A DNA stretch of 64,000 bases from Eukaryota sp. GEM-RC1 (taxonomy: Eukaryota), in the NCBI GenBank assembly GCA_040285855.1, contig JAUFOQ010000006.1, forward strand, positions 930,001 to 994,000, read 5' to 3'. Within the stretch, counting starts at the first letter, position 1; each line of letters opens with the position of its first letter. This document shows, piece by piece, positions 17,991 through 60,054 of the stretch. The position numbers were made by a program, and so were the translations under genes. Below the pieces are notes generated by a model. The model was not told the DNA's origin. It made no database searches and saw only the letters and a list, made by a program, of their open reading frames with translations.

Positions 17991-19428
17991 CTAATAAATA
18001 TATCTGTAAACAAAATAACAAACTAAAAGAACCGGAGTTAATGAGGAAATGAAGTAAATAATGACATCCCATCCCCGCCATGTCACACCAAGAGCTCTCC
18101 TCATGTCCTTCCTTCTAACAGCCGTACAAACTAAAACTGAACCAATAACACCTGTTAGAATTACCGCTGTGGTTCCCGTAAATCGATCAATGAAATCCAT
18201 GAAAGATTCACCATTGATTGTCAACTTGACACTAGTTGATGATAAAGCCGACGGAGTGCCAGCTATTAACAACAAGCAAGTTACTATTATTACAGCTGTT
18301 TTGTTGGAGATTGAAAACTCTTCAGAAACTGCATTAAGAATTACCTTAAATCCAGCTAGTGATGAGCTAAATGCAGCAAGAAAGAACAAAAAGAAAAACG
18401 CTATTGACAAAACATACCCCCCTTTTAGACTTGGAAAAATCTTGGGTAACACGTTGAATGCCAATTCTAAACCTAAAATGAGTACAACAATGGAAAAAAC
18501 ATACCAGCGGCTGGCTTTTCATCTGATGCAAAAACAAATGGAAAAATCACAAAAATTGAAGCTAATGAAACTGATAGCTGAGTAAGTCCTACAATGATTG
18601 AAGCTCGGGGAATGTGAATCTTAGGGGGAAGGAGAGAACCATAAGTTTCCAAATAGCCTTGGCCAATGGCAATCGTAAAGAAAGCTTGACCAAATGCAAA
18701 GAACCAAAGATCAACATCTGCTAAATCTGACCAGTTAACTCTAAAAACAAAGTCTTTCGTCTTCTCCCAACCTTCGCCTGTGGTTAGAGCACTTACAACT
18801 ACCAGCATCAGCAAAAGAGCCATTAGAACTGGGATAAGTACAGTACATAACTTTTCTAGTGCTTTTACACCCTTCAGCATGATCAGAGCACATAGAACAG
18901 TGAGAGTGATGAACCAGTAAAGTGATTTGAAACCTTGGCAAAAGTCATCGAACACAACCAGACGATTAGCAACAGCATCGAAGGAGAATGCTAATGTCCA
19001 GCCAGTGATGACCATTAGGTAGGAAGTAATGGCAAATGTAAGGAGGATGACTGCCCAGCCATGGATTGGACCTAGCCTTTTGTTAGTGAAACGATAAGTT
19101 GATACAACATTTCCTTGAGCAAGACGCCCAGCGGCAGTTTCGAGGAACATCTAGAATAAGAAATACTAGAAGAACTTACAAATGGAAAAGCAACACATAT
19201 CAAGGTGACGATTTGGGCAAAGATGTAAGTAGCTCCACCTAGTTTGTAGACAATGTAAGGAAATCTGACTACATTACCCAACCCAACACTAGCAGCACAA
19301 GTGGAAATGATGAATCCTCTTTCGGAAGAGAACTTCTCGTCATTTTTCACATAAAACTCACTAGCAAGGAGAGGAAGTCTAGTTTTGATGAGAGGAAGAA
19401 CCTCCCTGGGACGAAGAGAAGTAGACAT
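17991..19428 (-). CDS. Sodium:neurotransmitter symporter (SLC6/NSS) family transporter, two introns
   Basis: SVGLGNVVRFPY, AFGQAFFTIAIG, YGSLL and FLAAFSS motifs. GT-AG introns at 19151-19179 (29 nt) and 18473-18504 (32 nt) restore the frame. Confidence 0.92.
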
Positions 19429-19941
19429 CAGCTTATAAGTGGAAAAGATAGAGAAATCAATTACAATGTTCTTAAACAAATTCCAATTCAATTAATTATT
19501 ACCGATTTCGGCACAATTGTTCTTTTCCATGATACTCTGCATGCTCCAGACTTCTTCTTAACATTATTCTGATTAATTATTTACAGTCGAAACGACATTC
19601 GATGCATATAAACACATTATTTGTTTCATTTGCGTTCCTTAGTACAACTGAATGCTGTTTTCTATTGAATGGAAGTCGACATCAATTGCTAGAGTTGTTT
19701 GGTAAATGACGAAATAACTATTGCAATACATTGGAACGTTCTCATATTTGCAATAAATATATTGATGCAAAGAACCGTGGGCAATAAAATACTTATTACA
19801 GTACATTGTATTTCTCGGTGTCCCTGTGCAGTGTTGAATCAACCTCCCATTACTCAATTCATCAATAAATCTCAAAAAAACATAGAAATTGAGGGAACTT
19901 CCTCAATGGTTCGAGTGTGATTAAGAAATATGGTTTGTTAC

Positions 19942-20487: not shown

Positions 20488-21685
20488 TCAACAAGAACCT
20501 CCACATTCCAATTGACGGGTACATCCTTGACAAGATAATTCCACTTCCAATTCAACAGCTTCACTTGGAAATTTAGACACCAATTCATTCATAACTTGCA
20601 TCAATTCCTCAGTTTCAGAAGCCATTTCTAACTCAGCGCTTTCAAATCGCTTGGCAATCTCACTATGAACAGATGGAGGGAAATGAGCGTCCAACAGCTT
20701 AAACAGTACTATAGTTAGAACAATAACAAGTAAACATACTCTGATCTTCCTTGTAAATATGTTGAGTCAAATGAGAAGCGTACTCATTACTGGACTCTGA
20801 AAACCCAACCACATCTTCTGCTTCAATTGCTTCCTTCATTGAAGTCATTAGTTCTCGGTTGATTTCATGTTCAAGTTCCATTACTTCGATGGGACCACCT
20901 TTAACTGGGAATCCTGTATCTTTGGCAAATACAAACAGAATGTTCTCTTCTTTGGCATGATGAACGCGGTCAGCAAAGCCAGTAAAGAATTGAACAAATG
21001 AGTTGGCTGTGGTGGTATCGAAAGCAGTATTGAGGGAATGGCGGCAAAATGAAACTAGAGCAGACAGGACAGCGGATATCTTACGATGTTCTTCTTGGAG
21101 GTTGAGAGTTGATGTAGAACTGTTCTGTGAAAGTCCGGCATCACGAATTCCTGGACACGAAGGTAGCTTAGGAGCAGCATATTTGTCATTGAGTTGATCA
21201 GCAATAGAGAGAAGTTCATCATTCAGCTTGACGCTGGATATTTTCTTCATGAGCGAAAGTACATCAAACTCACTAAATCCTTCCTCGAGCATAGGAGCAA
21301 GAATGTTATCCTCCTTATAAGCGTGGTTTTTGAGCAAGTCAATGTACTTTTCAGCAAAGGCTTTAAACTCAGAGCTGCCATCATGAGACAAGCACTCTCG
21401 CATGCTAGAGATTAAAGCGCGAAGAGCGGTGTGTTCTTTTAGCATGGCCTTGATGGGTTCGGTTGCTATATGCTTTGACAAAGCTAGGTCAAAAATGAGG
21501 TCTTCTTCCATGGCATGGTGGTATTTGTCAGCATAATCTGAAAAAAACCGTGCGAACAGACCAGCATCTGTACTATCAAATTGGGAAAGAATGAACTCCT
21601 CGAAGGATTCCAGAACATCGGTAATCAACTTGTGATGGGAAGCAAGAAGGTCGGTTGGTGAATCTATTGACAGAGAAACGGACAT
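20488..21685 (-). CDS. Tandem hemerythrin (HHE) domain protein, one intron
   Basis: Two H...HHxxEE...EH...HxxKED motif sets. A 31-nt GTATGT...TAG intron (20709-20739) joins ORF 20488-20694. Cys-rich C-terminal tail. Confidence 0.9.
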
Positions 21686-21803
21686 GAAGTGGAAAGGTCT
21701 AGGTCCTATGGAACAAGCTTTGACATAAGGGAATGGGTCGAAATTGTAATGTGCAGAGTTCGTGAGATGACGAGCAAAAAACGTTTTGTTGGAACTTCTA
21801 CTA

Positions 21804-21919
21804 CTGTGAATTTCATTCCAAATGCATAAGGGCATAACCCTTCACATTTTCATGAGATAAACCACAGTTGACAAAGTCCTCATTCGCAAAGTCTTTTAAG
21901 ACGAGCTAACTTCATAGAT
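21804..21919 (-). ncRNA. Candidate Fanzor omegaRNA scaffold (copy 1)
   Basis: 116 nt between the Fanzor stop and the element end, identical in copy 2. It folds into two stem-loops; the terminal one is a 64-nt CTGTG...CACAG hairpin (21804-21867). Confidence 0.75.
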
Positions 21920-24807
21920 TCAAGATTCCTGATCTTTCTGGTTTACGTTTACGTGTGAGTCCTTGGGTACATATTTCTTAGGCTTATTTGGACAAGTTGC
22001 TCTGTTATGCCCAGGTTGAAAACATATACCACACTTGTTAGGACCTCTGACTTTTGTTAGAGGACGCTTTGCCTTACCCTTACCCTTACTCACAGTCTTT
22101 TTCTTAGGAATCTGATCTGTATTCCCGCCATCCACGACAGGTGTTGTTTGAGATTTTGGTCTCTCGAGGATGGCAGGTCTACCTTGACCTTGAATTGTTC
22201 CATTTACAATATTGTAAATATTGATAGCAGAATTGAAATCTCTATTCCAGAGGACATGACATTTAGCACATTCAACTAAGCCCCATGGTGAGACTTTGTT
22301 GTTCTTCAATCTTTCTTTCGAAAATGTCAACTGGTCTGTCCATTCTTCATCAAAGTTACGCTCCACAATATTGTCTAATTGATTGTGTTCAATAATTTCC
22401 TTTTTAATTCTTTCTCTTCCTTCTGTAACTTCTTCTTCCAATTAGGATCAGTGACTTTGATCCTTTCAGGATTGGAACAGATACCTTCGTCATTTCTGGA
22501 AACACATGCAGAGCAACATTTGCTGGTCTTAAATTCATCAACTAGGAACACTTTAAATCCAAATTTTCTCAATAATTTCCGAATTGAAGCACCTTTTACA
22601 GTCGATGCTTTACCTCTTCTTCGACGAAAAGCAGTGTCGTTCCAGTCTCCATACCCAACAACGACTTCATCTGGGTTTCCAAACTGGAGAGTAAATCTGT
22701 GAAGCATGTTTTTCTCACTTCGTTCCTTTCTTGAATACTGTGTTAAGCGTCTACGTCTAAACCACTTTTCTTCGTAAATTCCTTCAGTATTTCTTTGATC
22801 AGTAGTGGGTGATCGTAATAAAGAACAGGTAATTTCTTTACCAAGAACAAAAGCAGAATACTGAGTCAATTCACAAGATTTACTACCTGGCGAGTTAGAG
22901 CCCCATTGATCTAAAATTTGTTGCCCATTTATGTCAATGCGTCTGCCATCTGGAATGTGAATAAATTGGGTAGAGTATTGTTGTAACCGTTCAGATTCAG
23001 ATAAACGGTGGAGATTATATCGTCTTATTTTCTTCTCCAGCTTCCTCTTCTTTCTCTTAGCTCTTTTTCTTTCCTTCCTTGTTTTTTTCTTTTCCATGGA
23101 GACTTGTTCATATCTGCCTTGCGCTCCCCAGCAGTGTATCTGAATACTTTCCAATCATCACGATTTTTCAACTTGACAGTTGATGGTTTGTCAATAGTGG
23201 GTGCGTCTTTCCAATCCTTCAATTGATTTTTTAATTTTTTCAAGCTTCCTTTTTTCTTTGATGATTTTGGAGAAATCTTTCTTCTTCTGAGTTTGGCTGA
23301 TGTATCGAAACCTTCGATTTCCTTTTCCTCCTTAGATTTTAAAGAAGCACAGTACATCAAATCATGCTGATTAGGATCAATAGCAACAATTCTTTTGGAT
23401 TTCAAATTTAAGTTTTGAATTTCTGTGGAACTCAAAGAATCAATGTACCTTTCAGTAGCTGTGTAGTCAACTGCTTTCACCTTCTTATGAGGATTTCCTC
23501 TCGCATCAAGCAGATCTTTCCGCATCATCATTAAATTACAGCTAACTCCATCTGTAGAAATAGAACTGTATTTGAAGTCATGAGACAATGACTTTGGAAG
23601 ACACTTTGGTTTCAAAACTGAGTGCCAAATATCTTTTCGAACGTCATCAAAGCTACCTTTAATTTCTGATGCATAAACTTCTTTAAACCATGTAGTATCC
23701 AATCTGATATGATTAGGAATCAGTGATTTTGTTAGAGGAAAAGGATTATTGGCAGTAACACCAGGACAAGAGTCCTCAACAAGACGTTTCAAATACACTG
23801 CATGACTTAAGAATTTCAAAGGATCTACTTTTTCAGCATAATAGATTGTTTTCTCCATTTTACCTTCAAAAAAAGTAAACAAATAGTTAAAAAATAGTAA
23901 ACTCAGTCTAGAATTGGGATCAGGAAACACTTCAACATCTTGAAAATTAATTTTTGAAATTTCCCCATTAATGATCAACTGTCTGACTTCATTAAGCTTT
24001 GTACACAACTCTTGTCGTAGATTCTTATCAGTAAGCTTGTTAAGTCTATCTTTTTCAGGGTAACCAAATTAAATACTTGAAAAACATATTCATGAAAGTG
24101 ATCACTCATGTTAGTCTTGTAATTCGTTATAATTTCAGTAGCCATGTAATGCAATATACGAGATAAACGATGACTACTGGGAAACACAATCCTATCAAGT
24201 CCAACAGATCGAGCAGCTATTTCTAAACGAGGAATATAATACATCAAGAAGTGTTGAGCAAACTGATTTTGAGTTGAGCCATCATTTGTGTTAGAAATTA
24301 TGTTTTCTAAAGATTCTTGCACAGTCTCAATATGATTCTGATTGTTTACAAGTTTGTTGTCCCTAATCGTCATCATAGACAACACTTGTTCCATTGATTT
24401 CAACGTAAAAAAATTCTTCCAGTCTGGCAATTCAATTTTGGCAGTTTGAATTTTAGTCCAAAGGTCAGGTTCAGGTTTAGGTTCATCACTCGCATCTTCA
24501 ATATTTTCTAATTTAATAGGAGGAGTAGCAGCATGGATAGACTCTGAATGTACATCTGTTTCTTCATCAGTTGACTCATCTGTATCAGAATTCATTTCTT
24601 CCTTAACAGTTACATTTGGAACAGTAGCAGGCAGTAACTTCTGAATGTAACCTATAATACCTGAATGGTGAAAATTATGAACAAAAAATGTTTCAAAAAG
24701 AGAGTACTACGGACTCTTACTTGGTGAGCTCTCTTAACACGAGATTCAATAAATTTAACCTTCGCTTTGGACACAACATTGTCTAGTCGTTTCTTAACCA
24801 CTTTCAT
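21920..24807 (-). CDS. Fanzor1 (TnpB-like RNA-guided RuvC nuclease) with C-terminal CCHC knuckle, frameshifted
   Basis: ISTDGVS; RuvC-I IVAIDPN; VGYGDW; RuvC-II VDEFKTSKCCSAC; ECAKC..WNRDFNSAINI (RuvC-III); GRP; CGICFQPGHNRATC. Spread over several ORFs joined by -1 shifts. Confidence 0.9.
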
Positions 24808-27800
24808 TGGTGACTTTGAACGTAATGTTTGTTTTTTGGGATCCAATAGGTCAGCCAACAAGTACTCAATCAGAGGTAATTGTTGAATTGAGTTCATCAA
24901 CAATAGCGGTCTTGTCGATTCCTTGGCCCAAAGTTCATTTACTTTCTCCAAATTTCTTACAAATTTCTTTTTAATCTTATCGACCTTCACTTTGGGATTG
25001 TCTGGAACTAAAACATTAATACTGTCAATTATGCCATGCAAGTTTTGGACATTATTGACCAATTGAACTTCATCAGGATCAGAGTCATGATTAAGTTCTT
25101 CCAAGCGTTTGACAGTTTCATTTTTAGAAAAATTATTCATTTCAAGAAAAATTTGAACAACATTTTCCAAAAAACGGCCACCAGTAAAGACATAAAAATT
25201 CTTCAGTACAGCATTCAAATCGAGACTAAAAAACGGACCAAAAGTTGTTTCCTTACACCATTTGTTGAACCAAAAGGGAATGTAGGGTTTAAATTCTGGA
25301 AAAGTAAACGTTGTATTGATTTTGAGGACTTGACAACGTGATACAAGAAAGGGAAATGTATCTAAGTGAAAGTCATAACTCACAAACAATCGTGGACAAT
25401 GTTGAGTAATGAAGGAAATGAAGTTTTTAAGCATACTGGATTCACTATCTGAAATATGTAAGGTACACAAATCCAAGTTTGTAGTATCAAAGTTGCCATG
25501 AGAAAATAAATGTTTTTCATTAAACTCATTGTGATCAATGATCTCGATGGAAATTGATACAATAGGATCAACAGAAGAATCACGTTTAACTTCTAATTGA
25601 TCTTCAGCTTCACCTTCAACAGTTTCAATGTCATCATCATCTTCTTGAACAAGTTGAACATTTCTGCCATTAATTCTTTCTTTTTTGGCAAAATCACTTT
25701 GAACATGAATTAAACAAAAGTTGGTAGATTGTTCCAAAGTAGAGGGGATTTAAGAAAGTCTTGAATTTGTATTTCTTCTTCTATAGGCTCAGTGTGTAGA
25801 TTTACTTCCATTTTTGGATTTCTTCTTGAATTGGCGATGGATACGACATAATGGAGGCCTTAATTTTGGGTGGTAGTTCAGATGGTGGTACTTCAGATGA
25901 TTCCAATGTGGACATACGGCGGTGAGTCTTTCGTATTGGAGTGTCACCAGTTGAAACAAGGGAGCTGGTAGTTCTAAATTTATTTCGTTGAATTAAAGGT
26001 GAACCTCGTGGTGATGGAATATCAGAAATTTTGGCCTTTCTTTTTTTAGTGCTTAAACCAGTAGATGCTTTAGTGCTAGCAAGACGCTTACCTGAGATTG
26101 GTGACGCAGAAACACGCGACAACTCAACAGGACTAAAAGTTTCAAAATGTTCCAAAATTTTACTTCGAGACTCGTGAACAGCAATAGTGGTATTACCCAG
26201 CAGTTCTTTAACATCAGTCCACCTTATGACCACAGATTGATCTAAATTCATTAAAAGATCAATGTATTCGAGAACACAAAAACCAGAGTCAGTTAGAGTA
26301 TGTTTGATATTTGATGGAATAAATTCTATATTTCTGGTTTCACACATTGACAACACTGAATAAATTTTTGACACAATTGTAAATAAATTGGAGGAAGATG
26401 GTGCAACTGGCATTTGGTTAGCAGGAAATTCTCTGGCATAATCATCCTCAACGTAGGTCGGATCAATGAATAAAATATGACTTGTAGGAGATGAAATGAT
26501 CAGAATAATTAAACCCCAATGACGACCATCAGCAGTAAGATCACACATTGCACTATTGACAGGAACAAGTAGCATTTGTTGGTTGTTTTGACCACATTGG
26601 AAGAATTTCTGCGTCAAAAAATCTGAAAATGGATATTTATTATAGGGTTGGTCACCATATAATAACGGATATAAATCAGTTGGCCCAATTACATAGTCAT
26701 AAAAGATTAAACCTGTTGATTCCACAAGTATTTTGGAATATTTGATGAACAATTGATCGTCAACATAAGTAAACAATTTTTGAATCTGTTTACGGAGATC
26801 TGCAGCATTAAGTTCAATGTTAACTTGGATTAAAGCACGTTCAATAGAGATCAAAGATAGATTGATGCCATCCCTTGAAATGAGTTCAACAAATTTTTGA
26901 ATATAACCAATAACATAAATACCACAGTCATTAGGAGTCTGTGTCTTGGTGATGTTGACCCTCTGTACGTTCAATGTTACTTTCCTACATAATTCATCTA
27001 CAACAGAACTTAGATAAGAAGAACCAACAATTGGATCCACAAATATCGCGTTGTTTTCCGCACAGTCTATTACCATTAGACCCCAATGAACTCCTCCAGA
27101 TCCACCTGTTGTATTCATAGCATCGTTGAGAGGAACAGCGAAGTATCTGGTGCTTCTCTCCCGGGCGTCATCAATCTTATTTTGGCAGTATCCATCAGTT
27201 AAAAAATCTGACCACATCTCATCTGGAGCAATGAAATAGCATTCCCAATCAAGGTTTGCTTCTTTGAATTGGTGTTTTGAGTATTCAGAAAGGGCGTAAT
27301 CATCTATCCATTGGCCAGGATTCAGATACTCTAGGGAGTCTTTGGACAACGGTCCGGGATTGGATTCCACGTCACCATCCATGGTGAGATCTTCTTTGAA
27401 TGGGGGACGGGAGGAGAAAACTGTACAAGAGAGGTCTAAAACACTTCGCGAGGAAGAACCACACACGGCATAGCTCTTGTTTTTAAGTATGTGTGTGTAG
27501 TTCATTGGAGGGGAATTGACACGGAGGGGAGAAACTGTACCATCAGCGAGAGAAGAACCACACACGGCATAGCTCTTGTTTTTAAGTATGTGTGTGTAGT
27601 TCATTGGAGGGGAATTGACACGGAGGGGAGAAACTGTACCATCAGCGAGAGAAGAACCACACACGGCATAGCTCTTGTTTTTAAGTATGTGTGTGTAGTT
27701 CATTGGAGGGGAATTGACACGGAGGTGAGAAACTGTACCATCAGCGAGAGAAGAACCACACACGGCATAGCTCTTGTTTTTAAGTATGTGTGTGTAGTTC

Positions 27801-28000
27801 ATTGGAGGGGAATTGACACGGAGGGGAGAAACTGTACCATCAGCGAGAGAAGAACCACACACGGCATAGCTCTTGTTTTTAAGTATGTGTGTGTAGTTCA
27901 TTGGAGGGGAATTGACACGGAGGTGAGAAACTGTACCATCAGCGAGAGAAGAACCACACACGGCATAGCTCTTGTTTTTAAGTATGTGTGTGTAGTTCAT
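24808..28000 (-). CDS. Repeat leader + 2A + two Ulp1/C48 (SENP8-like) protease domains, N-terminal to Fanzor
   Basis: WIDD..., VPLND...GGVHWGLMVID, FVDP, QTPNDCGIYV. Second domain VPVN...HWGL...FIDP...DSG. In copy 2 this region is one ORF running into the Fanzor N-terminus. Confidence 0.85.
27350..27391 (-). other. 2A (StopGo) ribosomal skipping motif
   Basis: DLTMDGDVESNPGP matches the D(V/I)ExNPGP consensus. Confidence 0.9.
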
Positions 28001-28026
28001 TGGAGGGGAATTGACACGGAGGGGGA
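27453..28026. repeat. 99-bp tandem repeat (~5.8 units) encoding the 33-aa leader repeat
   Basis: Near-identical units differing at one G/T position. Each encodes MNYTHILKNKSYAVCGSSLADGTVS(H/P)LRVNSPP. Confidence 0.95.
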
Positions 28027-28445: not shown

Positions 28446-31400
28446 CTATTCCCTCATTTTGTATTCCACATCTGTAAGATTTTGCCTCAAAAACGCGTGG
28501 AAAGTATTCCACTTTTTGCTTCGGGGTTGGTCGTTATCCATGATAACAAACAGTGCGTTTTCAGTTCTTTGTTGAATAAAAGGAAATGTTGATGGCGTAT
28601 CTGGAAGATCAATAATAATTGATATCTGACACCTAAATTCGGAAAATTTTTCCAAAATTCCCCAATTAGCAAACAATACCGAGTTTGGTTTCGTGTTGAA
28701 CTGGTTCATTGTGAAATTATAAGCACTTTGAGTGACAGGTTTGGTTTTGCTACTGGCAAATTGGAGGGCATTAATGGTACCGTTCTTGGTTTCTTCACTA
28801 AACAAACTGCGATACGTCAGTACATCTTGTCTAGATTTAAACAATACAGCAATTTTTTCATGGGGTAACTTCCTTGTTTGGAGGATACCATGTAATAACC
28901 TTTTCAAAATTGAACTGATATCCGCAAATTTGCAATGAACAAGGTTGAACTTTTTTCCTTTCAGTCGAATAGGAGGTCCTTCAGCTGGTGATAGTTTGTT
29001 TGGGTGGGATGATTTATCCAAACTTCTACAATATGATTGGAAATCAATTTGTTCCAAAGTTGTATCACCACCTGAACGACACAAAGTCATCACTTCTCCT
29101 GACACATCAACAATTCCAATTGTCATTGAAGTATGAGAAAAAATAGTTGACATGGCTCTTGTATGCCCGTAGATATACAAAATGAGATTTCTTTTTGTTT
29201 TGCACTTATACCTATACACGTTCCATCATTAGTGATACACAAAAATAATTCAAATGCTTCAATGAAAATACAGTCTACCAGACTAATTTTCTCACTTGTA
29301 GGGTAAAAATCATAGACAGATTCAAGACAGTGTATGACATTGCTTTCCCCATCAGTTCTTATGAGATCTACGGATGACTCGCTTAAAACCAAAACAAAAC
29401 CTTCTTTGTAAGCATGAAGTTTGGTGAAGAGCTTTCTTGGTCTATCTTTTGGTTCACGTTGCAAGTCAGCATGAAATTGAATATCTGTCACACTGACGGT
29501 GTAATCAGTAATGTAAATGAAACTGTCACATAAGGTTACAATATCCTTTAATCCTGTTGTTTGACTAGTTAAAGTCCGCCTGACTCCAGACATTTCAAGT
29601 TCGTATATAAACTTTTCCGTCATTACCAAGCATCCCCTAAAATAGTGACCAGGCAAAAATATTGCAACAATTCTTTCATCAAGTTGGTGTTGCGTATATT
29701 TTCCATTTTCGGTACCATTTTCTACGCTGTCTTCATAAGATGACTCATTGTATAAAGGTAGATTAAGGAGTTTAATCATTGACTCTTTAACATAAATAAC
29801 AAATAATCCATCAGACGAAACGTCAAATGGACTATCACTATTGATTTTGTCCAAAATTGAACTGGATTTGTGATCTGTAAGATCAAGAATCATAAGATAG
29901 TATGAGCCATTGAGAAGACAACGAGCAACAATTTGAGTTGTCGCCGGTATAATTACACACTGTTGAACGACAAGTTGTACAAAGGTAAATTTACCAGCTA
30001 TGTTAGGTACAGGTCTTTGAAAACAAATTTTTTGAGCCTTCCATGACGCAATAGGTTCTGTACTATACAAAGCAGTAGAAGAAGTAGTAAAAGCAGTAGT
30101 AGAAGTAGTAGTAGGAGCAAGAGTAGTAGAAGCAGTAGGAGCAAGAGTAGTAGAAGCAGTAGAAATAGTAGAAGCAGTAGAAATAGTAGGAGGAACTGTA
30201 TCTTGCCAATACAATGTAATAATAGATCCTTTTCCAGTAACAAAATAAATTTCTGGCTTTTTGAGAGAAGGAAAAATTTTGATAATACCTGCATCCCAGT
30301 TTCGTTTAAAACGATCATTAAAAAAGACAGGAGCGGCTCGATTATCAGTATTAAAGAAACCAATACGATTCTTTCTAGTCACAAAAATGATGACTTTGGG
30401 ATGACCATATATTCCACATGCATCAACAATACAATCATATGGCTTAGGTCCTTCCAACCACCCCTGTGGTCTTAACAGAAAATCTACTTTGATTTGAGAT
30501 TTTGAAACCGTCACAATATGTAACGAAGTCTTTGCAACCACGAGTCGTGAATGAATATCATTTGGAATTACACCAAATTTGAATCCACCCGTAGCATAAC
30601 TGTGCATTTCAGCATCTGAGAAGCTGACGGCATCTTTATTTGCCCAGAAAACCGAACTACTTGTTAATAACAAATGTGTATCAAAGGAATCTTCCAGTTT
30701 TACAAATGTGGAATCAAGGGCTACTTCGTTTCTTGGAAGTAAGGTAAACGCATCGTTACCAGTCCTATCGGGAAGTTGTACAGATTTCAAATAACCACCA
30801 ATGGTACCGACAAACAAACGGTCATTATCTGTACTTACTAAAGATGTTGACTTGATTTGATTTTTAAATTCACGGTACATTTGATTCTTATACGAAGCAT
30901 TATGTGCTTGCATGTATGTGATCATAACTTGATCAGCGGTGGGTGTGAATACATAAAAAAAAGTAGGCCTGGGTTGGTGAACTGCTAGTGACAGTAAATC
31001 ATACTTTGGCAAATGTAAACGATTTTGTAAAGTATCCTCTCCCACTGTCCAAAGAACTAAATCATTTCCAGTTGTCAATAATATAATGAAACTACCAGTT
31101 TCAGTTATTACGGCATTTTTAATGTCAGATGTAGATGACCAAGTGGTTTTGGATTTGACAGATGTCGCAAGTTGAGCGAGAATGTCAATTGTCTTTGTCT
31201 TTACAGGTTGACGTTCTGAAGAAGGAGGGTGAGAATGAGCTGAAACACTGACTTGATGCCCTAATAAAAGTTCATCTTCTTTTGAAATTGTTTCTAAATC
31301 AGATTCTTCCATATACTCCTCTACATCACTGGTTCCAAATGTTTCAGACTCCGAGTCCGATACAATTTTTTGTTTTTCAACATTACTATACAGTCTTTTC

Positions 31401-34400
31401 CAGTTGAATCAAACCTTGCTTCATACTTACGAATTGCTTCCTCAATATCAAAATTTCCGCAAACGTTACACGGCCCAGTGCATAATTTAGTTTTAACGGT
31501 TTCATCTAACCGAAATGGTACACTACCAGCAGCATCATAGTCGGATGCGTCCACATCAATAATTGTTCCAGTAGGTTTCATGGGGGACGATTTAATGGCC
31601 TGAATCTGATAGAACAAACGAGTAGGATCCATTTGTAATCTTTCACACAAATAAACACCTAATCTACATCGATTCAGGCAACCAATCATTGATACTAAAG
31701 GTTTCAGAACAGAATCATCGTATTCATAGCATATTTCCGAATTATGCGCAATATCAAATGATACCATTTGTGTGGTAATACATCCGTAGCTGAACACACG
31801 AACATACATCAATTGTAAAAATAAGTTGGACAAAGTACGTTCAAAATAACAGCACAAAGTTGGAAGTGCCTGTTGCGGAGTCACATATACACCTGACCAT
31901 TGATCACATTTATCGACAGGTAATCGAGTGAAAAGAGAGTTGTAGAATTTGAGATCAATACGACCACTATGACCGTTCAGAGTACTGTACTTAATAGGAC
32001 TTTGATAGTAGTAATTTGAGGCTCTTAAACGCACATTAACGGAGAATGTTTTTTCTTTACATAGTAGACCAAAATTTAACAAATCTGCAACATTTACACC
32101 GGCACTGTTACTGGAGTACCATTGATTAGTTTTGAAGAATACTGAGGGATAGGGGTGTATATTCAATTTGGGGAAAAACGGATGGGGTAATTTAGATGAT
32201 GAAGAATTTTCAATCATTTTGGCCAAAATAAGTGAAATAACTCTGTTATTTTTACAATTACTCGCTGTAAGTTCGATTTCCTTGTCGGATTCAACAGAAA
32301 GTTCTAATTTAACAGCATTTGTGTCCCGCTGTCGCTGTTTTGAAGACTCCAATAAACTATTCAATTTTGTTATCTTTGCGTTTAATTCATCAACAGAAAC
32401 ACTTTCAAATAACGTCTTTTCAAATGGTTCAACAGGCAGCTGAGTTGAAGATCCTTGTAATGCCATGTCTTGTTGCATACTTCGAAACATTATTGAATTT
32501 TTCGGGTAAGACGACGCAAACAACAAAGTCAATTGTGAAAAATCGAAATTAGATGGAACAAGTGTTTGATAAAAAGATTGATCCTTAAAATCACTCCATT
32601 CTTTTGATTTAGATCCTGTTTCCTCTCTTTTTCATGTTTATGTCCTGTATGGGCCATTTTGTACCCTTGTAATAAAGATTGGACCTGTTTGGCTTTAGCT
32701 TCTAACGAATCAAAGGTTTTGGACAATCGATTCAATTTGGATTGGAAGGTTTCACCCATACTTGATACACTACGCTTAATAACACTCAATTTGGACAGCA
32801 ATCTATCGCACCAAAACTTCAACTTCCTAAGGTCAAAATATTGTAAAATCTTCCAATTGATTGTACCGGATAACAAGGCACATAAAAATTTGAACATCAT
32901 ATTCAGGTCTGAAAATCCGTGATCCGTTCCATCATCATACAAATTTAGAAAATTTCCTAGTTTTTCAACTTGGTTGATGTATTCTGTGTTGAACTTGAAG
33001 TTAAACAAATTGAAATTGAATGAACATAAAAGAATTAATCCGGCAACAACTTGATCTTGAACAAAACAATTGAATACAAAATGAAAATGTTCATGAGAAT
33101 CAGCAAGAAGTGATCCCAAAAGTCCCATAGACGTCAGTTTGTCATTGATAAAACGACTCTCAAGGATATTATTCAGGTAGAGGGAGTAAACTGTTTCGTT
33201 TACTGAAAAATCAGAAACGATAGTAGGCATGGCATTCAGAAAATCATTTGGATGAGATGAAATTTGTTTAACTTTCAAAATACAATCTTCCAATGGTGAA
33301 TCTAGAATTTGTGGATCTTTTGTCGGAGACCTTGAGTACTGACCAATAAAATTAAAGTCAAATAATCTAATACAGATCCCAGGTCTTGTCCGTCCGACTC
33401 TTCCAGCACGTTGAGTAGCAGAGCATTGTGAAATGTTTGCCATAACCAATTCTTTTCTGAAATTTGGAACTCTTTCTAACCCAGTATCCAAAACAATTAC
33501 TGCCGAGTCGATCGTGATTGATGACTCTGCGATGTTAGTTGCAGCAACAATCTTGAATTCATTGTTTTTACACTTGCTTGCTGCCTTGAGTTGATCCTCT
33601 CTGCTGATCTCAGAATACAAAGGATAACAACAGTTCATAGGCAAATCATTATTGTGATAACATGCTTTAACCAGACTTTCTACTTCAAAAGAACCAGGTA
33701 AAAAAACAATTAATGTTATACCTGGAACATCTGACTGTCTTGTATGAAGTTTTGTTAGTACAAAGTATTTGACAACAATTTTGTAAATAACAATTATCAA
33801 TTGCAGGAGTGCGTCTGAGTTAATAATCGACGGGTGAAGTCTCTGATCTACTTTAGATTCAAAGTGTTTTTTATAATTTACCACTTCTGCACGAAAATCA
33901 TGTTGATGATCACAGACAGCTTCTCGAAATCGAGGGGGAAATCCTTCAGTAAGTTTTGAATACCAGTCATTAGTTTCGAAATTCTTAAAGTCGAAAACGT
34001 TCAGGACTCTTGAGAATTGACCAGTGTCAAACATAAGGTTTTGTTGTTCTTTAAGTAAATCAGTCTCTGTCCATTGATTATCAGGGAGCAAAGTGTTTAA
34101 AAACTGGGTTAAGTTCAGCAGTTGTTGATCCAATAGTTGCGGATGACAAACCACGTATAATGCCCGAGTTTTTTAAATTAATTTTCATTACTGTGAGTAA
34201 CAGATCGACATCTATAGTTCTGTCATGAACTTCATCCACAATGACGACTTTGTAAGTAGAAACAAATGAATGCTGATTCATCAACAACATGAGAGTTAAA
34301 CCAGTTGTTTGATAATGAACCAAAGTATTGTCTGAAAAATTGTATACCCCACCACCACAGTGATATCCAGCAATGGGGTAATCGTAAATAAATTTACTAC

Positions 34401-36542
34401 CCAGTCGAGGTCTAGTTAAGGAGTTAAGAAATTCAGACAAAAGATTGCCGAAGGTACCGTTGGTTGGGAAACAATGACTTTGCTAAAAAAAGTAAGCGCA
34501 AAAATAACAGGTGACAGTGTAGATTTTCCTGATCCAGTTGAACCAGTGATCATATAGGGTAAATCATAACTCCGATCAGAATTACAATAACACTTGATTA
34601 AATGCTTTAATAGTTCAGTAAAACTATTCTTTCCAGTAGAAGTCGAGACAAAGGACAATTTATGATCTCGTTGAGCATGAAATAGAACATTCATCAAACT
34701 AGACAATGCGAAATGGTCTACATTGTGTCTACTAGCATATTGTTTCCAGTGAGTGATGATAATTGGAGTAATTTGAGTAATAAGGTCGCATTTTAAATCC
34801 ATCAGCTCAGTCATAAGATCATCGAAATTAGTATCATGACGGTTTACCTCAATTGGTTCAATAGCATCAACAGCATTAACATCAAGGAGAATTTCGGTAA
34901 GATCTTCGGGTGTTTCTTCAACATCTTGTAATAAATCAATAACTTTGGCTTTCTCTGTCTTATATTTCAAAGCATCTTTAATTGCTTGTTCAACAACTTC
35001 TTCATGTGTTGTTCCATTGAATATATAGCTAATGAAAACAAATGGGAAGTTCATTAGATTTACAAAGGGTTCAAAACAATTTTCAAATTCTGAAGTGGAA
35101 ATAATGTAACTTTGATAACCTAGCATAAATACCAACAAATAAATTGAAGAAATTTGTTGATTTCGGTAATTCTCTTGATCAGTTTCATTTGAAAATAAAT
35201 ATGTCTTGGCAAAGACATAAAAGCGATAGAGTGATCGAAAAATCCAGGTATCTTGTAACTTTGCATCAACATTGAGTAATCGGGAAGCATAGTTTTCAAT
35301 TCTTACAGACATATCAATAGATGTATTATTAAAATCCTGTACTTGTTCATATTCATCAGCTTCGTCAGTTGTTTGTTCTGAAAGAACAGCTTGGCCATCG
35401 GCAGCTTCAGCATATTCTACAATTTCATTGAGTAGTTTTTCCAAGTAATTTTTGTTAAAATGTTTTGGTGGGGTCAGATCTCGCAGCCAAGTTTTTACTT
35501 CTCTTGCTGAATCAACTGTGAATGGGGAAAGAGAATCTGGCGTTGGAAAGGTATCTTTAAAAAATTTAGATCTTTGCAAATACTGATGACACAGTGTTAG
35601 TGCTATCGTCAACATTGTTGTTAACGAAAGACAACAGGCAGGATTTACAACGCGAATGAATTTCGAGAAATCAAGAGTATGAGCGGTTAAACAGCATTGG
35701 ACGGGCCTGGTCGAATCATGCTGTTGTGGAAGTATACCAGGCTGTCGGGGGAGCATACATTGATTACAAATGGCGTAACTTGAACATTGTTTATCAATTG
35801 TCAAACGTTTTTGTGCAGAAAATTGTAGAAGTTGTTGCGATGGTAAAACTTTCAGGGACGGCAAGTCAATGGAGGTGAAAACTTCATTATGATATTCTAG
35901 AAACTCAACAAAAACATGATCGACTTCTGGGGCAATCAGAGATTCAAAGAAGGATGTAATGTAATCATAAATATTTTTAACAGAAAGTCTTTTCATTGGT
36001 AGATCAAAATGAGCAAGAGCATTGTCTAGTTGAGACTTACATTCAGTAAAAGAAATGGGATCACGATCAGTCATTGCTTCTGGAACAGACTGTGAAGCAT
36101 TCAGGTGATAGTGTTCCAAGCAAGTACATATACGATGTCCTGTAATGTTCTTCACAGGATGGATTACAGACTCATGTGAAATAAATGCACAGCCTGAGTG
36201 AGCGGAGGGTGGAAATGGACCGGGATTTGACTCTACATCACCGTCCATTGTGAGATTTCTTAACCAACTATGGGATGGAGAGGCATTAGATTCAGTAACA
36301 CGTACAAAACAACAATAGTTCAAGGCATGACTCTTCTTTACGAGCATGTTATCCCTATATGTTGTATTGGGGGAAGGGGGCGTAGAAAGAGAGGACTTCG
36401 CTTCAACAACGGGAGGAGAACAACAACAACAATAGTTCAAGGCATGACTCTTCTTTACGAGCATGTTATCCCTATATGTTGTATTGGGGGAAGAGAATGG
36501 CATTTTGAAACGATGGGGAAGATATATCCGGAGCAATTTCAT
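28446..36542 (-). CDS. Repeat leader + 2A + DEAH/RHA-family helicase polyprotein (six ORFs joined by frameshifts)
   Basis: GSTGSGKST, SQPT, IVDEVHDR, SAT, VFLPG, ATNIAESSITI, DTG and QRAGRVGR motifs. Downstream ORFs overlap in shifted frames and include a beta-rich (propeller-like) region and a degenerate helicase-C-like domain. Confidence 0.8.
36216..36266 (-). other. 2A (StopGo) ribosomal skipping motif
   Basis: WLRNLTMDGDVESNPGP. Confidence 0.9.
36309..36493. repeat. Two ~68-bp direct repeats, 117 bp apart, in the helicase leader
   Basis: PNTTYRDNMLVKKSHALNYCC is encoded twice. Confidence 0.9.
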
Positions 36543-37229
36543 TTGATGTTGATCTTGATGCTTCTGACTTCACTTCACCACCTTGGATTTTACATCACCT
36601 TAAAAACACTTCTTTAACACGTTATCCCCATGGATGTTTACGTCTGTCTAACGTAATTCATGCTTACTTGGAGTTCATCATGTGTTGTTCTGGATGAGAT
36701 CCATGACTTTTTTTTGAGTTTCCACCTTCATTTACTGTACTCTTGGTCAAAATCGAATCGTATTTGCGGTTTTTAATGATGAGATATTTATGTAATGTTG
36801 GCTTCACAATAAAATATGAAATAGATAGTTACAGTTGAAAACATCCTATACATTTATAAAAATAGAATATAATTCACCATATGGCTTATGAGTCGTTATG
36901 ATGCCGTTGCCGTGACGGATATGCACCTAAACCCACCACGATCTGATGATGTTGTAGTAGATCAAATGCGCAAATCAACTTTCTCCAATTACACACGAAT
37001 CCAGGAATTTCAACAGGTTGTCAACAACCACCAGACATCTCTTCTCACTTTTTTTCACTATATGGTCAAAAAATCTTTATTGTATATGATGGTTTCTTTC
37101 ATGTACATAATGAAGGGAAGATATATCTAAAGTTCAAAAGGATTCTTCGTAAAATTGGATTTTTGACAAGAGACTTAAGAGGAGGGAGTGGAGTCGAAGT
37201 AATCTCAGTTGTTCCAGTTGATTCTGATT

Positions 37230-38590: not shown

Positions 38591-38596
38591 ATACAT

Positions 38597-38846
38597 ATTG
38601 TTACACATCTTGTATTACACATCTTGTATTACACATCTTGTATTACACATCTTGTATTACACATCTTGTATTACACATCTTGTAAAACACATCTTGTAAA
38701 ACACATCTTGTGTTACAAATGTTGTATTACAGATCTTGTGAAACACATCTTGTAAAACACATCTTGTAAAACACATCTTGTGTTACAAATGTTGTATTAC
38801 AGATCTTGTGAAACACATCTTGTATTACAGATCTTGTGAAACACAT
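38597..38846. repeat. 14-bp minisatellite (TTACACATCTTGTA and variants)
   Basis: Tandem 14-mers starting just after the stop codon at 38590. Confidence 0.95.
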
Positions 38847-47657: not shown

Positions 47658-47999
47658 GTTCGTAAACTGTAGTAGCTTTTAGGTAATTAAAAGAATAAAT
47701 ATCCTTCTAATTGTCTAGGTAGCTCTTAAAACGAATCCTTCTTAAGGAAGCTAGATGGATGAACAACACTCAATAGAACACTGTCTGTTTAATTAGTTTA
47801 AACTGTTCTATGTACGTTCCAACTCTTTGTGGCTCTTGGTGTAATATAAATGGGGACACCAATCTAAGGGGAGTTTTAATGACAGTGAATGTTGTTTTAA
47901 TAATGTTGAGTTCTTGTTTTTGTACTTATTATCAGCTCAATATACGTACGTAGAATAATTACAGCTCTTTGTCTATTCATCGTTGGTTAGAATCTTCTC

Positions 48000-53951: not shown

Positions 53952-54067
53952 CTGTGAATTTCATTCCAAATGCATAAGGGCATAACCCTTCACATTTTCA
54001 TGAGATAAACCACAGTTGACAAAGTCCTCATTCGCAAAGTCTTTTAAGACGAGCTAACTTCATAGAT
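53952..54067 (-). ncRNA. Candidate Fanzor omegaRNA scaffold (copy 2)
   Basis: Identical to 21804-21919. Terminal hairpin at 53952-54015. Confidence 0.75.
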
Positions 54068-56950
54068 TCAAGATTCCTGATCTTTCTGGTTTACGTGTGA
54101 GTCCTTGGGTACATATTTCTTAGGCTTATTTGGACAAGTTGCTCTGTTATGCCCAGGTTGAAAACATATACCACACTTGTTAGGACCTCTGACTTTTGTT
54201 AGAGGACGCTTTGCCTTACCCTTACCCTTACTCACAGTCTTTTTCTTAGGAATCTGATCTGTATTCCCGCCATCCACGACAGGTGTTGTTTGAGATTTTG
54301 GTCTCTCGAGGATGGCAGGTCTACCTTGACCTTGAATTGTTCCATTTACAATATTGTAAATATTGATAGCAGAATTGAAATCTCTATTCCAGAGGACATG
54401 ACATTTAGCACATTCAACTAAGCCCCATGGTGAGACTTTGTTGTTCTTCAATCTTTCTTTCGAAAATGTCAACTGGTCTGTCCATTCTTCATCAAAGTTA
54501 CGCTCCACAATATTGTCTAATTGATTGTGTTCAATAATTTCCTTTTTTAATTCTTTCTCTTCCTTCTGTAACTTCTTCTTCCAATTAGGATCAGTGACTT
54601 TGATCCTTTCAGGATTGGAACAGATACCTTCGTCATTTCTGGAAACACATGCAGAGCAACATTTGCTGGTCTTAAATTCATCAACTAGGAACACTTTAAA
54701 TCCAAATTTTCTCAATAATTTCCGAATTGAAGCACCTTTTACAGTCGATGCTTTACCTCTTCTTCGACGAAAAGCAGTGTCGTTCCAGTCTCCATACCCA
54801 ACAACGACTTCATCTGGGTTTCCAAACTGGAGAGTAAATCTGTGAAGCATGTTTTTCTCACTTCGTTCCTTTCTTGAATACTGTGTTAAGCGTCTACGTC
54901 TAAACCACTTTTCTTCGTAAATTCCTTCAGTATTTCTTTGATCAGTAGTGGGTGATCGTAATAAAGAACAGGTAATTTCTTTACCAAGAACAAAAGCAGA
55001 ATACTGAGTCAATTCACAAGATTTACTACCTGGCGAGTTAGAGCCCCATTGATCTAAAATTTGTTGCCCATTTATGTCAATGCGTCTGCCATCTGGAATG
55101 TGAATAAATTGGGTAGAGTATTGTTGTAACCGTTCAGATTCAGATAAACGGTGGAGATTATATCGTCTTATTTTCTTCTCCAGCTTCCTCTTCTTTCTCT
55201 TAGCTCTTTTTCTTTCCTTCCTTGTTTTTTTCTTTTCCATGGAGACTTTTTAATATCGGCATTGCGCTCCCCAGCAGTGTATCTGAATACTTTCCAATCA
55301 TCACGATTTTTCAACTTGACAGTTGATGGTTTGTCAATAGTAGGTGCGTCTTTCCAATCCTTCAATTCCTTTTTTAATTTTTTCAAGCTTCCTTTTTTCT
55401 TTGATGATTTTGGAGAAATCTTTCTTCTTCTGATTTTGGCTGATGTATCGAAACCTTCGATTTCCTTTTCCTCCTTAGATTTTAAAGAAGCACAATACAT
55501 CAAATCATGCTGATTAGGATCAATAGCAACAATTCTTTTGGATTTCAAATTTAAGTTTTGAATTTCTGTGGAACTCAAAGAATCAATGTACCTTTCAGTA
55601 GCTGTGTAGTCAACTGCTTTCACCTTCTTATGAGGATTTCCTCTCACATCAAGCAGATCTTTCCGCATCATCATTAAATTACAGCTAACTCCATCTGTAG
55701 AAATAGAACTGTATTTGAAGTCATGAGACAATGACTTTGGAAGACACTTTGGTTTCAAAACTGAGTGCCAAATATCTTTTCGAACGTCATCAAAGCTACC
55801 TTTAATTTCTGATGCATAAACTTCTTTAAACCATGTAGTATCCAACCTAATATGATTAGGAATCAATGATTTTGTCAGAGGAAAAGGATTATTGGCAGTA
55901 ACACCAGTACAAGAGTCTTCAACAAGACGTTTCAAATACACTGCATGACTTAAGAATTTCAAAGGATCTACTTTTTCAGCATAATAGATTGTTTTTTCCA
56001 TTTTACCTTCAAAAAAAGTAAACAAATAGTTAAAAAATAGTAAACTCAGTCTAGAATTGGGATCAGGAAACACTTCAACATCTTGAAAATTAATTTTTGA
56101 AATTTCCCCATTAATGATCAACTGTCTGACTTCATTAAGCTTTGTACACAACTCTTGTCGTTGATTCTTATCAGTAAGCTTGTTAAGTCTATCTTTTTCA
56201 GGGTAACCAAATTAAATACCTGAAAAACATATTCGTGAAAGTGTTCACTCATGTTAGTCTTGTAATTCGTTATAATTTCAGTAGCCATGTAATGCAATAT
56301 ACGAGATAAACGATGACTACTGGGAAACACAATCCTATCAAGTCCAACAGATCGAGCAGCTAGTTCTAAACGAGGAATGTAATGCATCAAGAAGTGTTGA
56401 GCAAACTGATTTTGAGTTGAGGCCTCATTTGGTTTAGAAGTTATGTTTGTTAACGATTCTTGTACAGTCCTAATATGATTCTGATTGTTTACAAGTTTGT
56501 GGTCCCTAATCGTCATCATAGACAACACTTGTTCCATTGATTTCAACGTAAAAAAATTCTTCCAGTATGGCAATTCAATTTTGGCAGTTTGAATTTTAGT
56601 CCAAAGGTCAGGTTCAGGTTTAGGTTCATCACTCGCATCTTCAATATTTTCTAATTTAACAGGAGGAGTAGCAGCATGGATAGACTCTGAAGGTACATCT
56701 GTTTCTTCTTCAGTTGACTCATCTGTATCAGAATTCATTTCTTCCTTAACAGTTACATTTGGAACAGTAGCAGGCAGTAACTTCTGAATGTAACCTAAAA
56801 TACCTGAATGGTGAAAATTATGAACAAAAAATGTTTCAAAAAGAGAGTACTACGGACTCTTACTTGATGAGCTCTCTTAACACGAGATTCAATAAATTTA
56901 ACCTTCGCTTTGGATACAACATTGTCCAGTCGTTTCTTAACCACTTTCAT
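54068..56950 (-). CDS. Fanzor1, copy 2 (three -1 frameshifts)
   Basis: Same motifs as copy 1. RuvC-II, zinc finger, RuvC-III and knuckle lie in one 390-aa ORF. Confidence 0.9.
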
Positions 56951-59311
56951 TGGTGACTTTGAACGTAATGTTTGTTTTTTGGGATCCAATAGGTCAGCCA
57001 ACAAGTACTCAATCAGAGGTAATTGTTGAATTGAGTTCATCAACAATAGCGGTCTTGTCGATTCCTTGGCCCAAAGTTCATTTACTTTCTCCAAATTTCT
57101 TACAAATTTCTTTTTAATCTTATCGACCTTCACTTTGGGATTGTCTGGAACTAAAACATTAATACTGTCAATTATGCCATGCAAGTTTTGGACATTATTG
57201 ATCAATTGAACTTCATCAGGATCAGAGTCATGATTAAGTTCTTCCAAGCGTTTGACAGTTTCATTTTTAGAAAAATTATTCATTTCAAGAAAAATTTGAA
57301 CAACATTTTCCAAAAAACGGCCACCAGTAAAGACATAAAAATTCTTCAGTACAGCATTCAAATCGAGACTAAAAAACGGACCAAAAGTTGTTTCCTTACA
57401 CCATTTGTTGAACCAAAAGGGAATATAGGGTTTAAATTCTGGAAAAGTAAACGTTGTATTGATTTTGAGGACTTGACAACGTGATACAAGAAAGGGAAAT
57501 GTATCTAAGTGAAAGTCATAACTCACAAACAATCGTGGACAATGTTGAGTAATGAAGGAGATGAAGTTTTTAAGCATACTGGATTCACTATCTGAAATAT
57601 GTAAAGTACACAAATCCAAATTTGTAGTCTCAAAATTGCCATAAGAAAATAAGTGTTTTTCATTAAACTCATTGTGATCAATGATCTGGATGGAAATTGA
57701 TACAATCGGATCAACAGAAGAATCACGTTTAACTTCTAATTGATCTTCAGCTTCACCTTCAACAGTTTCAATGTCATCATCATCTTGAACAAGTTGAACA
57801 TTATTGCCATTAATTCTTTCTTTTTTGGCAAAATCACTTTGAACATGAATTAAACAAAAAGTTGGCAGATTGTTCCAAAGTAAAGGGGAATTAAGAAAGA
57901 CTTGAACTTGTATTTCTTGTTCGATAGGCTCAGTATGTAGATTTACTTCCATTTTATGGATTTCTTCTTGAATTGGCGATGGATACGACATAATGGAGGC
58001 CTGTGATTTTGGTGGTAGTTCAGATGGTGGTACTTCAGATGATTCCAATGTGGACATACGGCGGTGAGTCTTTCGTATTGGAGTGTCACCAGTTGAAACA
58101 AGGGAGCTGGTAGTTCTAAATTTATTTCGTTGAATTAAAGGTGATCCTCGTGGTGATGGAATATCAGAAATTTTGGCCTTTCTTTTTTTAGTGCTTAAAC
58201 CAGTAGATGCTTTAGTGCTAGCAAGACGCTTACCTGAGATTGGTGACGCAGAAACACGCGACAACTCAACAGGACTAAAAGTTTCAAAATGTTCCAAAAT
58301 TTTACTTCGAGACTCGTGAACAGCAATAGTGGTATTACCCAGCAGTTCTTTAACATCAGTCCACCTTATGACCACAGATTGATCTAAATTCATTAAAAGA
58401 TCAATGTATTCGAGAACACAAAAACCAGAGTCAGTTAGAGTATGTTTGATATTTGATGGAATAAATTCTATATTTCTGGTTTCACACATTGACAACACTG
58501 AATAAATTTTTGACACAATTGTAAATAAATTGGAGGAAGATGGTGCAACTGGCATTTGGTTAGCAGGAAATTCTCTGGCATAATCATCCTCAACGTAGGT
58601 CGGATCAATGAATAAAATATGACTTGTAGGAGATGAAATGATCAGAATAATTAAACCCCAATGACGACCATCAGCAGTAAGATCACACATTGCACTATTG
58701 ACAGGAACAAGTAGCATTTGTTGGTTGTTATGACCACATTGGAAGAATTTCTGCGTCAAAAAATCTGAAAATGGATATTTATTATAGGGTTGGTCACCAT
58801 ATAATAACGGATATAAATCAGTTGGCCCAATTACATAGTCATAAAAGATTAAACCTGTTGATTCCACAAGTATTTTGGAATATTTGATGAACAATTGATC
58901 GTCAACATAAGTAAACAATTTTTGAATCTGTTTACGGAGATCTGCAGCATTAAGTTCAATGTTAACTTGGATTAAAGCACGTTCAATAGAGATCAAAGAT
59001 AGATTGATGCCATCCCTTGAAATGAGTTCAACAAATTTTTGAATATAACCAATAACATAAATACCACAGTCATTAGGAGTCTGTGTCTTGGTGATGTTGA
59101 CCCTCTGTACGTTCAATGTCACTTTCCTACATAATTCATCTACAACAGAACTTAGATAAGAAGAACCAACAATTGGATCCACAAATATCGCGTTGTTTTC
59201 CGCACAGTCTATTACCATTAGACCCCAATGAACTCCTCCAGATCCACCTGTTGTATTCATAGCATCGTTGAGAGGAACAGCGAAGTATCTGGTGCTTCTC
59301 TCCCGGGCGTC
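56951..59311 (-). CDS. Ulp1/C48 protease region, 5'-truncated, in frame with the Fanzor N-terminus
   Basis: The 821-aa ORF 56795-59260 contains HWGL/DCG motifs and ends in MKVVKKRL...STLFLKHF. Confidence 0.85.
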
Positions 59312-60040: not shown

Positions 60041-60054
60041 CAGTCTTGTATCTA

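Follow-up and report, generated by a model that had tools for sequence, protein, structure and literature searches.

The window analysed here is a 64,000-nt stretch of contig JAUFOQ010000006.1 of Eukaryota sp. GEM-RC1 (GenBank assembly GCA_040285855.1, positions 930,001 to 994,000 of the forward strand), and positions below are counted from its first letter. It hosts two minus-strand copies of an element that encodes a Fanzor1 nuclease, copy 1 spanning about 28000 to 21804 and copy 2 spanning 59311 to 53952, with 98.5% identity across 5,370 nt. From 5′ to 3′ the element consists of a repeat leader, a 2A-like motif, protease 1, protease 2, a linker, an exonuclease, Fanzor1, a CCHC tail and a hairpin. 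This Fanzor1 architecture is real, confined to one lineage and apparently undescribed. Its features in copy 1, and the extent of copy 2, are given here; RCL stands for Eukaryota sp. TZLM3-RCL.

27448..28024, minus strand: leader of 99-bp tandem repeats (5.8 copies), in frame, with an ATG at 28000 and 216 aa ahead of the predicted skip site
27350..27391, minus strand: 2A-like (StopGo) motif DLTMDGDVESNPG/P, immediately 5′ of protease 1
26776..27349, minus strand: SENP8/Ulp1-family (C48) protease domain 1, with His 27088, Asp 27037, Gln 26941 and Cys 26926 intact; boundaries approximate
26130..26775, minus strand: protease domain 2, with Cys replaced by Ser at 26287 and Gln by His at 26302; boundaries approximate
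25750..26129, minus strand: Ser/Pro/Lys-rich linker including a KKRK stretch, with a one-base break at 25814 in copy 1 only
24850..25749, minus strand: PolB-type 3′-5′ exonuclease-like domain, catalytic acidic residues lost, with a break at 25719 in copy 1 only
22190..24807, minus strand: Fanzor1 nuclease, with frame breaks A, B and C in both copies and D in copy 1 alone
21920..22189, minus strand: basic tail, CCHC zinc knuckle (22033-21992; zf-CCHC_2 match below cut-off) and stop codon, absent in RCL relatives
21804..21919, minus strand: 116 nt of 3′ non-coding sequence that closes with a hairpin of 64 nt, a candidate omegaRNA scaffold
53952..59311, minus strand: copy 2, 5′-truncated against a Pif1-containing repeat

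A first-pass annotation of this DNA had proposed that a SENP8/Ulp1-family domain is fused to Fanzor1, and this is borne out. In copy 2 a single stop-free frame of 848 aa (56795-59341, minus strand) runs directly from the protease domains into the RVKRAHQVRVRSTLFLKHF of the Fanzor part, as had been described, and terminates about 50 codons inside that part. The sibling protein P0042 has the order 2A-SENP-exonuclease-Fanzor and is read through break A. The Peptidase_C48, DNA_pol_B_exo1 and TNB matches (TNB in copy 2) all exceed their Pfam cut-offs. The proposed joined product of about 2000 aa holds as a sum, 216 leader codons plus 1,812 giving 2,028, but no copy is one ORF (open reading frame) and six missing bases have to be counted in. 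An intact frame of this size is found in neither window copy: copy 1, to which the coordinates given for the fusion belong, has six one-base breaks, and copy 2 has three. Copy 2 is also cut at its 5′ end (59311), where it begins inside protease 1 and has neither leader nor 2A motif. Three features had gone unnoticed in the first pass, namely the 2A-like motif, the Cys-to-Ser replacement in protease 2 and the PolB-type exonuclease, which is the more conserved partner of the Fanzor. Compared in the inferred frame, the two copies give a pN/pS of 0.34 (32 of 73 changes synonymous, p = 1e-5), with eight synonymous and six non-synonymous changes in the exonuclease region. The multicopy state is also evident from one segment of the element, whose gene models fall into clusters of 18 and 8.

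The nuclease retains all the residues that had been ascribed to it. These are the RuvC triad of D 23378 (in a DPN motif), E 22536 and D 22240 (in RD), the CxxC pairs at 22515 and 22270, and the CX2CX4HX4C tail at 22033-21992. The glutamate of ExxxxxxCxxC at 22536 stands six residues before the first CxxC, an arrangement (Ealt) described as a Fanzor1 trait (PMC10711439). The motif D-X(125,275)-[TS][TS]-XX-C4 finger-X(5,50)-RD (PMC3627910) is present, with a D-to-TS spacing of about 283 residues that slightly exceeds its range. RuvC-I reads DPN instead of DPG, and SpuFz1 has D383/N385. Controls for comparison came from 160 loci in contigs of viral and metagenomic origin, taken as the 80 best of 429 hits and the 80 best of 562 in two partly overlapping sets. 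Of their 166 Fanzor ORFs, 45 have DPN, 82 have DPG and 39 are without the motif. A profile of the family (A4, which additionally contains three stand-alone Fanzors) matches Fanzor1 proteins of solved structure with E values between 2e-49 and 2e-38, the next match being at 0.003, and the RCL protein P0001 as a lone query has SpuFz1 as its top match (E 7e-7). Judged by sequence, the nuclease is closer to Fanzor1 than to Fanzor2 or TnpB.

At the 3′ end the identity between the copies stops sharply at 21804/53952, and the flanks differ beyond. The right end perhaps lies about 14 nt further out, as base pairing is possible between the scaffold and the flank of copy 1 (z -3.1, from two copies only). 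No Rfam match to this end was found, and the window holds no inverted-repeat partner for it. The terminal hairpin fits a guide-RNA scaffold, for which it is a candidate. A two-domain hemerythrin gene (20699-21835, minus strand) starts about 120 nt downstream of the copy-1 right end.

The exonuclease domain matches PF03104 above the Pfam cut-off (E 8.7e-8). For structure, the domain was searched through an alignment-based model of the sister protein P0095. This is a low-confidence model (predicted local distance difference test 47, predicted template modelling score 0.34), employed for domain-level Foldseek only, and it matched PolB enzymes. Look-alikes of the domain in the Atlas are PF03104 clusters at 0.90, which we treat as a lead only. 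The ExoI D-x-E, ExoII D and ExoIII Y-x3-D motifs are lost in all GEM-RC1 subfamilies examined, and the full DEDDy motifs are retained in the RCL proteins P0001, P0005 and P0007. For P0001 and P0005, Pol delta is the best match after SpuFz1. The joint between exonuclease and Fanzor is without a stop in at least four subfamilies, and in two species that are about 28% identical in the exonuclease core. A further RCL protein, P0027, is another catalytically complete PolB-type exonuclease, for which no link to a Fanzor was seen.

Protease 1 matches PF02902 at 26.6 bits (cut-off 20.7). It alone of the two domains has a complete His-Asp-Cys triad with the oxyanion Gln, and these four residues are invariant in all 12 rows of our alignment A3, whose sequences are 23-86% identical to that of the window. 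In protease 2 the serine takes the place of the cysteine in all six proteins that hold the domain, two of them the window's own, and the domain is likely an inactive pseudo-protease. The earlier description of tandem SENP8/Ulp1 proteases is thus sound for the first domain and an overstatement for the second. With a profile built from elements only, SENP8 (E 6e-10) and Ulp1 (E 1.8e-9) scored alike, so the sequence cannot separate SUMO from NEDD8 as the substrate; SENP8 had scored better with a profile in which two rows were of cellular type (P0037 and P0038). Removal of SUMO or NEDD8 by protease 1 is plausible. The full-text literature search returned no papers on these pathways in metamonads. 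Enzymes of the C48 family cleave after the Gly-Gly of folded ubiquitin-like proteins. Given this cut site, and since the sole processing signal found is the 2A-like motif 5′ of the proteases, the suggestion that the nuclease releases itself by proteolysis is disfavoured. Further protease cassettes occur in P0033 (two domains, both of which keep the catalytic Cys), P0035 and P0055, the last with a locus tag two away from that of P0086, a Fanzor fragment of the same family.

The motif ahead of protease 1 conforms to the 2A/StopGo pattern GD(V/I)ExNPG/P, and we predict that it is a ribosome-skip peptide. It occurs in 16 of 56 collected proteins, of which 13 are of the GEM-RC1 type (one being the window's own) and three are from RCL, and in 0 of 2,366 control ORFs. 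In siblings the motif follows repeat leaders of unrelated sequence.

The relatives illustrate which parts of this architecture are constant. P0001 (KAL0225525.1, from RCL), the best of the long relatives, is a predicted protein of 1,473 aa that consists of 2A, linker, exonuclease and a complete Fanzor, and P0005 (KAL0227451.1, also RCL) is likewise a complete single predicted protein with 2A, DEDDy exonuclease and Fanzor. Both records are annotated as hypothetical proteins. Among the GEM-RC1 siblings the protease part is exchanged. P0021 has the window's protease pair (91% identity in domain 1) on a sister exonuclease (98% to P0103). In P0020 and P0042 the exonuclease is that of the window (95%), but it is preceded by just one protease, of another kind (39-42%). 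On this comparison the conserved unit is 2A-exonuclease-Fanzor1, to which the SENP cassette is an optional and exchangeable addition. In a tree of 125 sequences the four skoliomonad Fanzor segments included form one clade with support 0.988 (135-residue segment, midpoint root), which unites the window's Fanzor with those of RCL. A HMMER search of 1.84 billion representatives gave 22 matches to the protease-exonuclease ORF; the source was looked up for 13, the window's own included, and all 13 are GEM-RC1 or RCL. Two weak matches, P0037 and P0038, resemble ordinary cellular SENP8-type proteins. No homologs of this ORF were found among proteins of 1,485-4,240 aa, which is weak evidence, and the Atlas gave no usable match for P0001.

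The control Fanzor ORFs are 118-755 aa long, 142 of the 166 are bounded by an upstream stop, and none has a protease or exonuclease profile match in the same ORF. Full-text literature searches, with supplements, subscription papers and Repbase outside their scope, returned no natural fusion of a Fanzor with an Ulp1/SUMO or other cysteine protease, an exonuclease or a 2A peptide. Such a fusion is likewise absent from the available parts of PMC3627910, PMC10711439, PMC10432273, PMC10530073, PMC13565253, PMC12338488 and bioRxiv 10.64898/2026.06.03.729735. Extra domains are reported to be frequent in Fanzors (PMC10530073), and two text supplements of that paper contain no Peptidase_C48, Ulp1, DNA_pol_B_exo, OTU, Skoliomonas or Metamonada.

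How the broken frames are to be read is central to this interpretation. Three -1 breaks are common to both copies, A (24683-88), B (24051-55) and C (in or after the run 23082-88), and copy 1 alone has one-base breaks at 25814, 25719 and 22405, the last being D in the Fanzor part. Every break is a single-base loss at a homopolymer, and the coding segments of either copy contain zero in-frame nonsense codons. The window's own copies excluded, A is read through in nine of 13 other copies and B in five of 13 (four by pattern, plus P0076), and at these points the siblings have the residues predicted if a single base were added, or residues close to them. Breaks D, E and F are read through by copy 2 and by siblings, and P0068 and P0078 run from the exonuclease to RuvC-I in a single frame. 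An intron of 20 nt at break A was rejected, as the read-through siblings retain those residues. The near-identical siblings are records of Eukaryota sp. GEM-RC1, whose assembly was made from R9.4 Nanopore reads with Albacore and short-read correction (PMC11316075). Unrelated parts of the window show the same pattern. Four one-base indels separate near-identical repeats, each of them within or next to a homopolymer run, and a fifth lies at the edge of an 88%-identical repeat pair. Nine of 11 overlapping-ORF junctions outside the element are -1. These junctions split Pif1, a DEAH helicase between motifs, and a sodium:neurotransmitter symporter (SNF) gene (17994-19491, minus strand), which falls into three consecutive Pfam pieces through two -1 shifts and serves as a control for assembly error. 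A structure that could stimulate frameshifting was found downstream of none of the shared breaks (z -1.7 at A, 0.7 at B and -0.7 at C). Because sibling copies read through and unrelated genes break alike, most of the breaks are likely to be assembly errors in homopolymer runs, with break C as the weakest point.

We therefore favour, with a probability of about 60%, a multicopy Fanzor1 mobile element that encodes one polyprotein, trimmed at the 2A motif to a product of about 1,810 aa with protease, pseudo-protease, degenerate exonuclease and Fanzor1. Most likely one transcript would yield one polyprotein. The 2A skip would drop the variable leader and set a defined N-terminus at protease 1, whichever leader precedes; as this cut lies before protease 1, the protease would stay on the nuclease instead of releasing it. 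By analogy with SpuFz1 (PMC10432273) and a homing model (PMC13565253), the 3′ hairpin and flanking DNA may form an omegaRNA that guides cutting of element-free sites, after which repair could restore or copy the element. The tethered protease might strip SUMO or NEDD8 near the target, whether from the Fanzor protein to which it is joined or from factors of chromatin, silencing, repair or degradation, and the exonuclease fold could bind the cut DNA ends, with trimming expected in the RCL version only.

Several observations weigh against this, besides break C and the methionine at 24807 that are taken up below. No record among the collected siblings holds a whole protein from SENP to RuvC-III, and the siblings are automated gene models, with apparent bridging introns in P0010, P0019 and P0060. 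A left end, target-site duplication, target-adjacent motif, inverted repeat and transposase were all looked for in the window and none was found. The hairpin has a z-score of only -1.9 over the shared 122 nt. A 2A motif by itself is no guarantee of skipping, for which the upstream context matters (PMC3708506). The protease region has only two substitutions between the copies, and so allows no selection test.

Could the protease cassette be a passenger? Protease genes led by 2A may recombine to a place before the exonuclease-Fanzor and add nothing to the nuclease, an explanation that we consider unlikely and that agrees with the lack of a protease in P0001, P0005 and P0007, with first proteases that vary among siblings in number (one or two domains) and identity (28-91%), and with one cassette that occurs on two exonuclease subfamilies. 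The unrelated DEAH helicase gene next door is also headed by a 2A motif and a repeat leader. Yet the catalytic residues are invariant across the diverse rows of A3, and at least three distinct protease types stand 5′ of the exonuclease or linker of these elements, which suggests repeated retention. A quite unlikely explanation takes break C as genuine, with a -1 ribosomal frameshift or transcriptional slippage on the A-run that keeps the full-length nuclease scarce, and a RuvC-less protease-exonuclease-REC protein as the main product. None of 14 other copies reads through C (13 stop likewise and one has a shorter run), and the A AAA AAA run, in frame, fits the rule for slippery heptamers. Proteins of 609-688 aa, the length expected of a product that starts after B and reads through C, fell between our two homolog searches. 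Against recoding, a downstream stimulatory structure is lacking, as noted above, sister subfamilies and RCL cross the region in one frame (P0062, P0088, P0095 and P0001), and the run varies in length among copies (P0084; P0059 versus P0087).

The first-pass annotation had named a Fanzor transcribed separately from an internal start at about 24807/56950 as the outcome contrary to a fusion. Such a protein, with the upstream domains a separate or incidental product, would begin at a methionine that is present in 22 of 30 relatives and aligned with the start of stand-alone Fanzors. The position is Ile or Leu in the other eight, which include the longest proteins of both other lineages (P0095, P0005 and P0103), so the internal start is not conserved and its case is weakened; the joint is also free of stops in every subfamily that spans it, in both of the divergent species. 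We regard a separate Fanzor as very unlikely, if not quite as unlikely as the last explanation, that the window copies are decayed pseudogenes and their breaks real mutations. The six and three breaks, and a copy 2 truncated beside another repeat, would be expected of decay. All of the breaks are, however, homopolymer losses of one base, nonsense codons are absent and unrelated genes share the pattern, and the fusion at the level of the family would stand regardless.

A polyprotein from a mobile Fanzor1 element remains our preferred reading; a more ambitious version of it we hold tentatively and think rather doubtful. In skoliomonad protists the Fanzor1 polyprotein may be a modular platform that combines a 2A skip freeing it from whatever leader comes first, a captured proofreading exonuclease that processes or holds the cut DNA ends, and an exchangeable SUMO/NEDD8 protease that the guide RNA brings to chosen DNA sites. 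If true, a nuclease that is guided by RNA and strips modifications from chromatin would exist in nature, and would spread although it has no transposase of its own.

The element is accompanied by other genes and repeats. Six overlapping ORFs form a chain immediately upstream of copy 1 (28446-36569, minus strand, about 2,700 aa). The chain has a leader with repeats spaced by 117 bp, a second 2A-like motif near 36230, a possible beta-propeller and a DEAH/RHA helicase core that matches DEAH helicases of solved structure at E 3e-18. Its leader-plus-2A design is that of the Fanzor ORF, for which it may be a partner, unless it is a 2A-led gene in its own right. A repeated unit, 99% identical between 38113-41652 and 59321-64000 (plus strand), contains a Pif1 helicase gene and a 14-bp minisatellite. 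One copy of the unit adjoins Fanzor copy 2 where the latter is broken at its 5′ end, with a duplication of 13 bp at the junction; 60055-61221 is tandemly repeated, and no Rep domain was found in the unit. A SWEET/MtN3-like gene is duplicated at 46823-47675 and 50129-50982 (88% identical; Pfam was applied to the first of the two). Near a BTB-domain gene lie duplicated fragments, in part inverted, at 511-1088 and 3468-4021.

The Fanzors described so far are compact, at roughly 400-750 aa, and our controls do not exceed 755 aa. Enzymatic domains held in frame show which accessory activities help an RNA-guided nuclease on eukaryotic chromatin. They also give a programmable DNA address to the Ulp1-type cargo of transposons, so far unexplained, whose function thereby becomes testable. 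The RCL version parallels in nature the engineered exonuclease-Cas fusions and, being predicted as a single intact protein, could be assayed directly.

Among known systems, the Fanzor1 proteins of Spizellomyces punctatus (SpuFz1), Parasitella parasitica and Guillardia theta (PDB 8gkh, 9cf0 and 9cer; PMC10432273) share the D-x-N / E / RD triad and a large REC. Fanzor1 elements of S. punctatus and others are likewise multicopy, with a conserved non-coding 3′ end and a variable flank, and Spu-1 also has no transposase inside the element. In contrast to SpuFz1-type Fanzor1, the window protein is about three times longer, adds the 2A motif, C48 proteases, exonuclease fold and CCHC tail, and has a long insertion between the CxxC pairs, and no terminal inverted repeat was found. 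Closest are P0001 and P0005, in which 2A, a Ser-rich linker, a PolB exonuclease and Fanzor1 form a single predicted protein, but these have neither protease nor CCHC tail, and their exonuclease has D-x-E, D and Y-x3-D. A captured C48/Ulp1 protease is also accessory cargo of the KAONASHI Mutator-like elements (PMC4948706), where it is a second gene by the transposase, and of Helitron-like elements (PMC11417382), where it lies near RepHel, whereas the window's protease shares its reading frame with an RNA-guided nuclease. The non-LTR (long terminal repeat) retrotransposons L1Tc, Ingi, CR1 and Crack (PMC3708506) share GD(V/I)ExNPG/P near the N-terminus of a long ORF, and the window element differs from them in having neither reverse transcriptase nor apurinic/apyrimidinic endonuclease. 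Finally, exonuclease and nuclease are coupled in the engineered TREX2-SpCas9 and T5Exo-Cas12j, and Terminons (PMC6431247) are mobile elements that carry a DEDDy exonuclease; unlike all of these, the window element is a natural in-frame Fanzor fusion whose exonuclease is catalytically degenerate.

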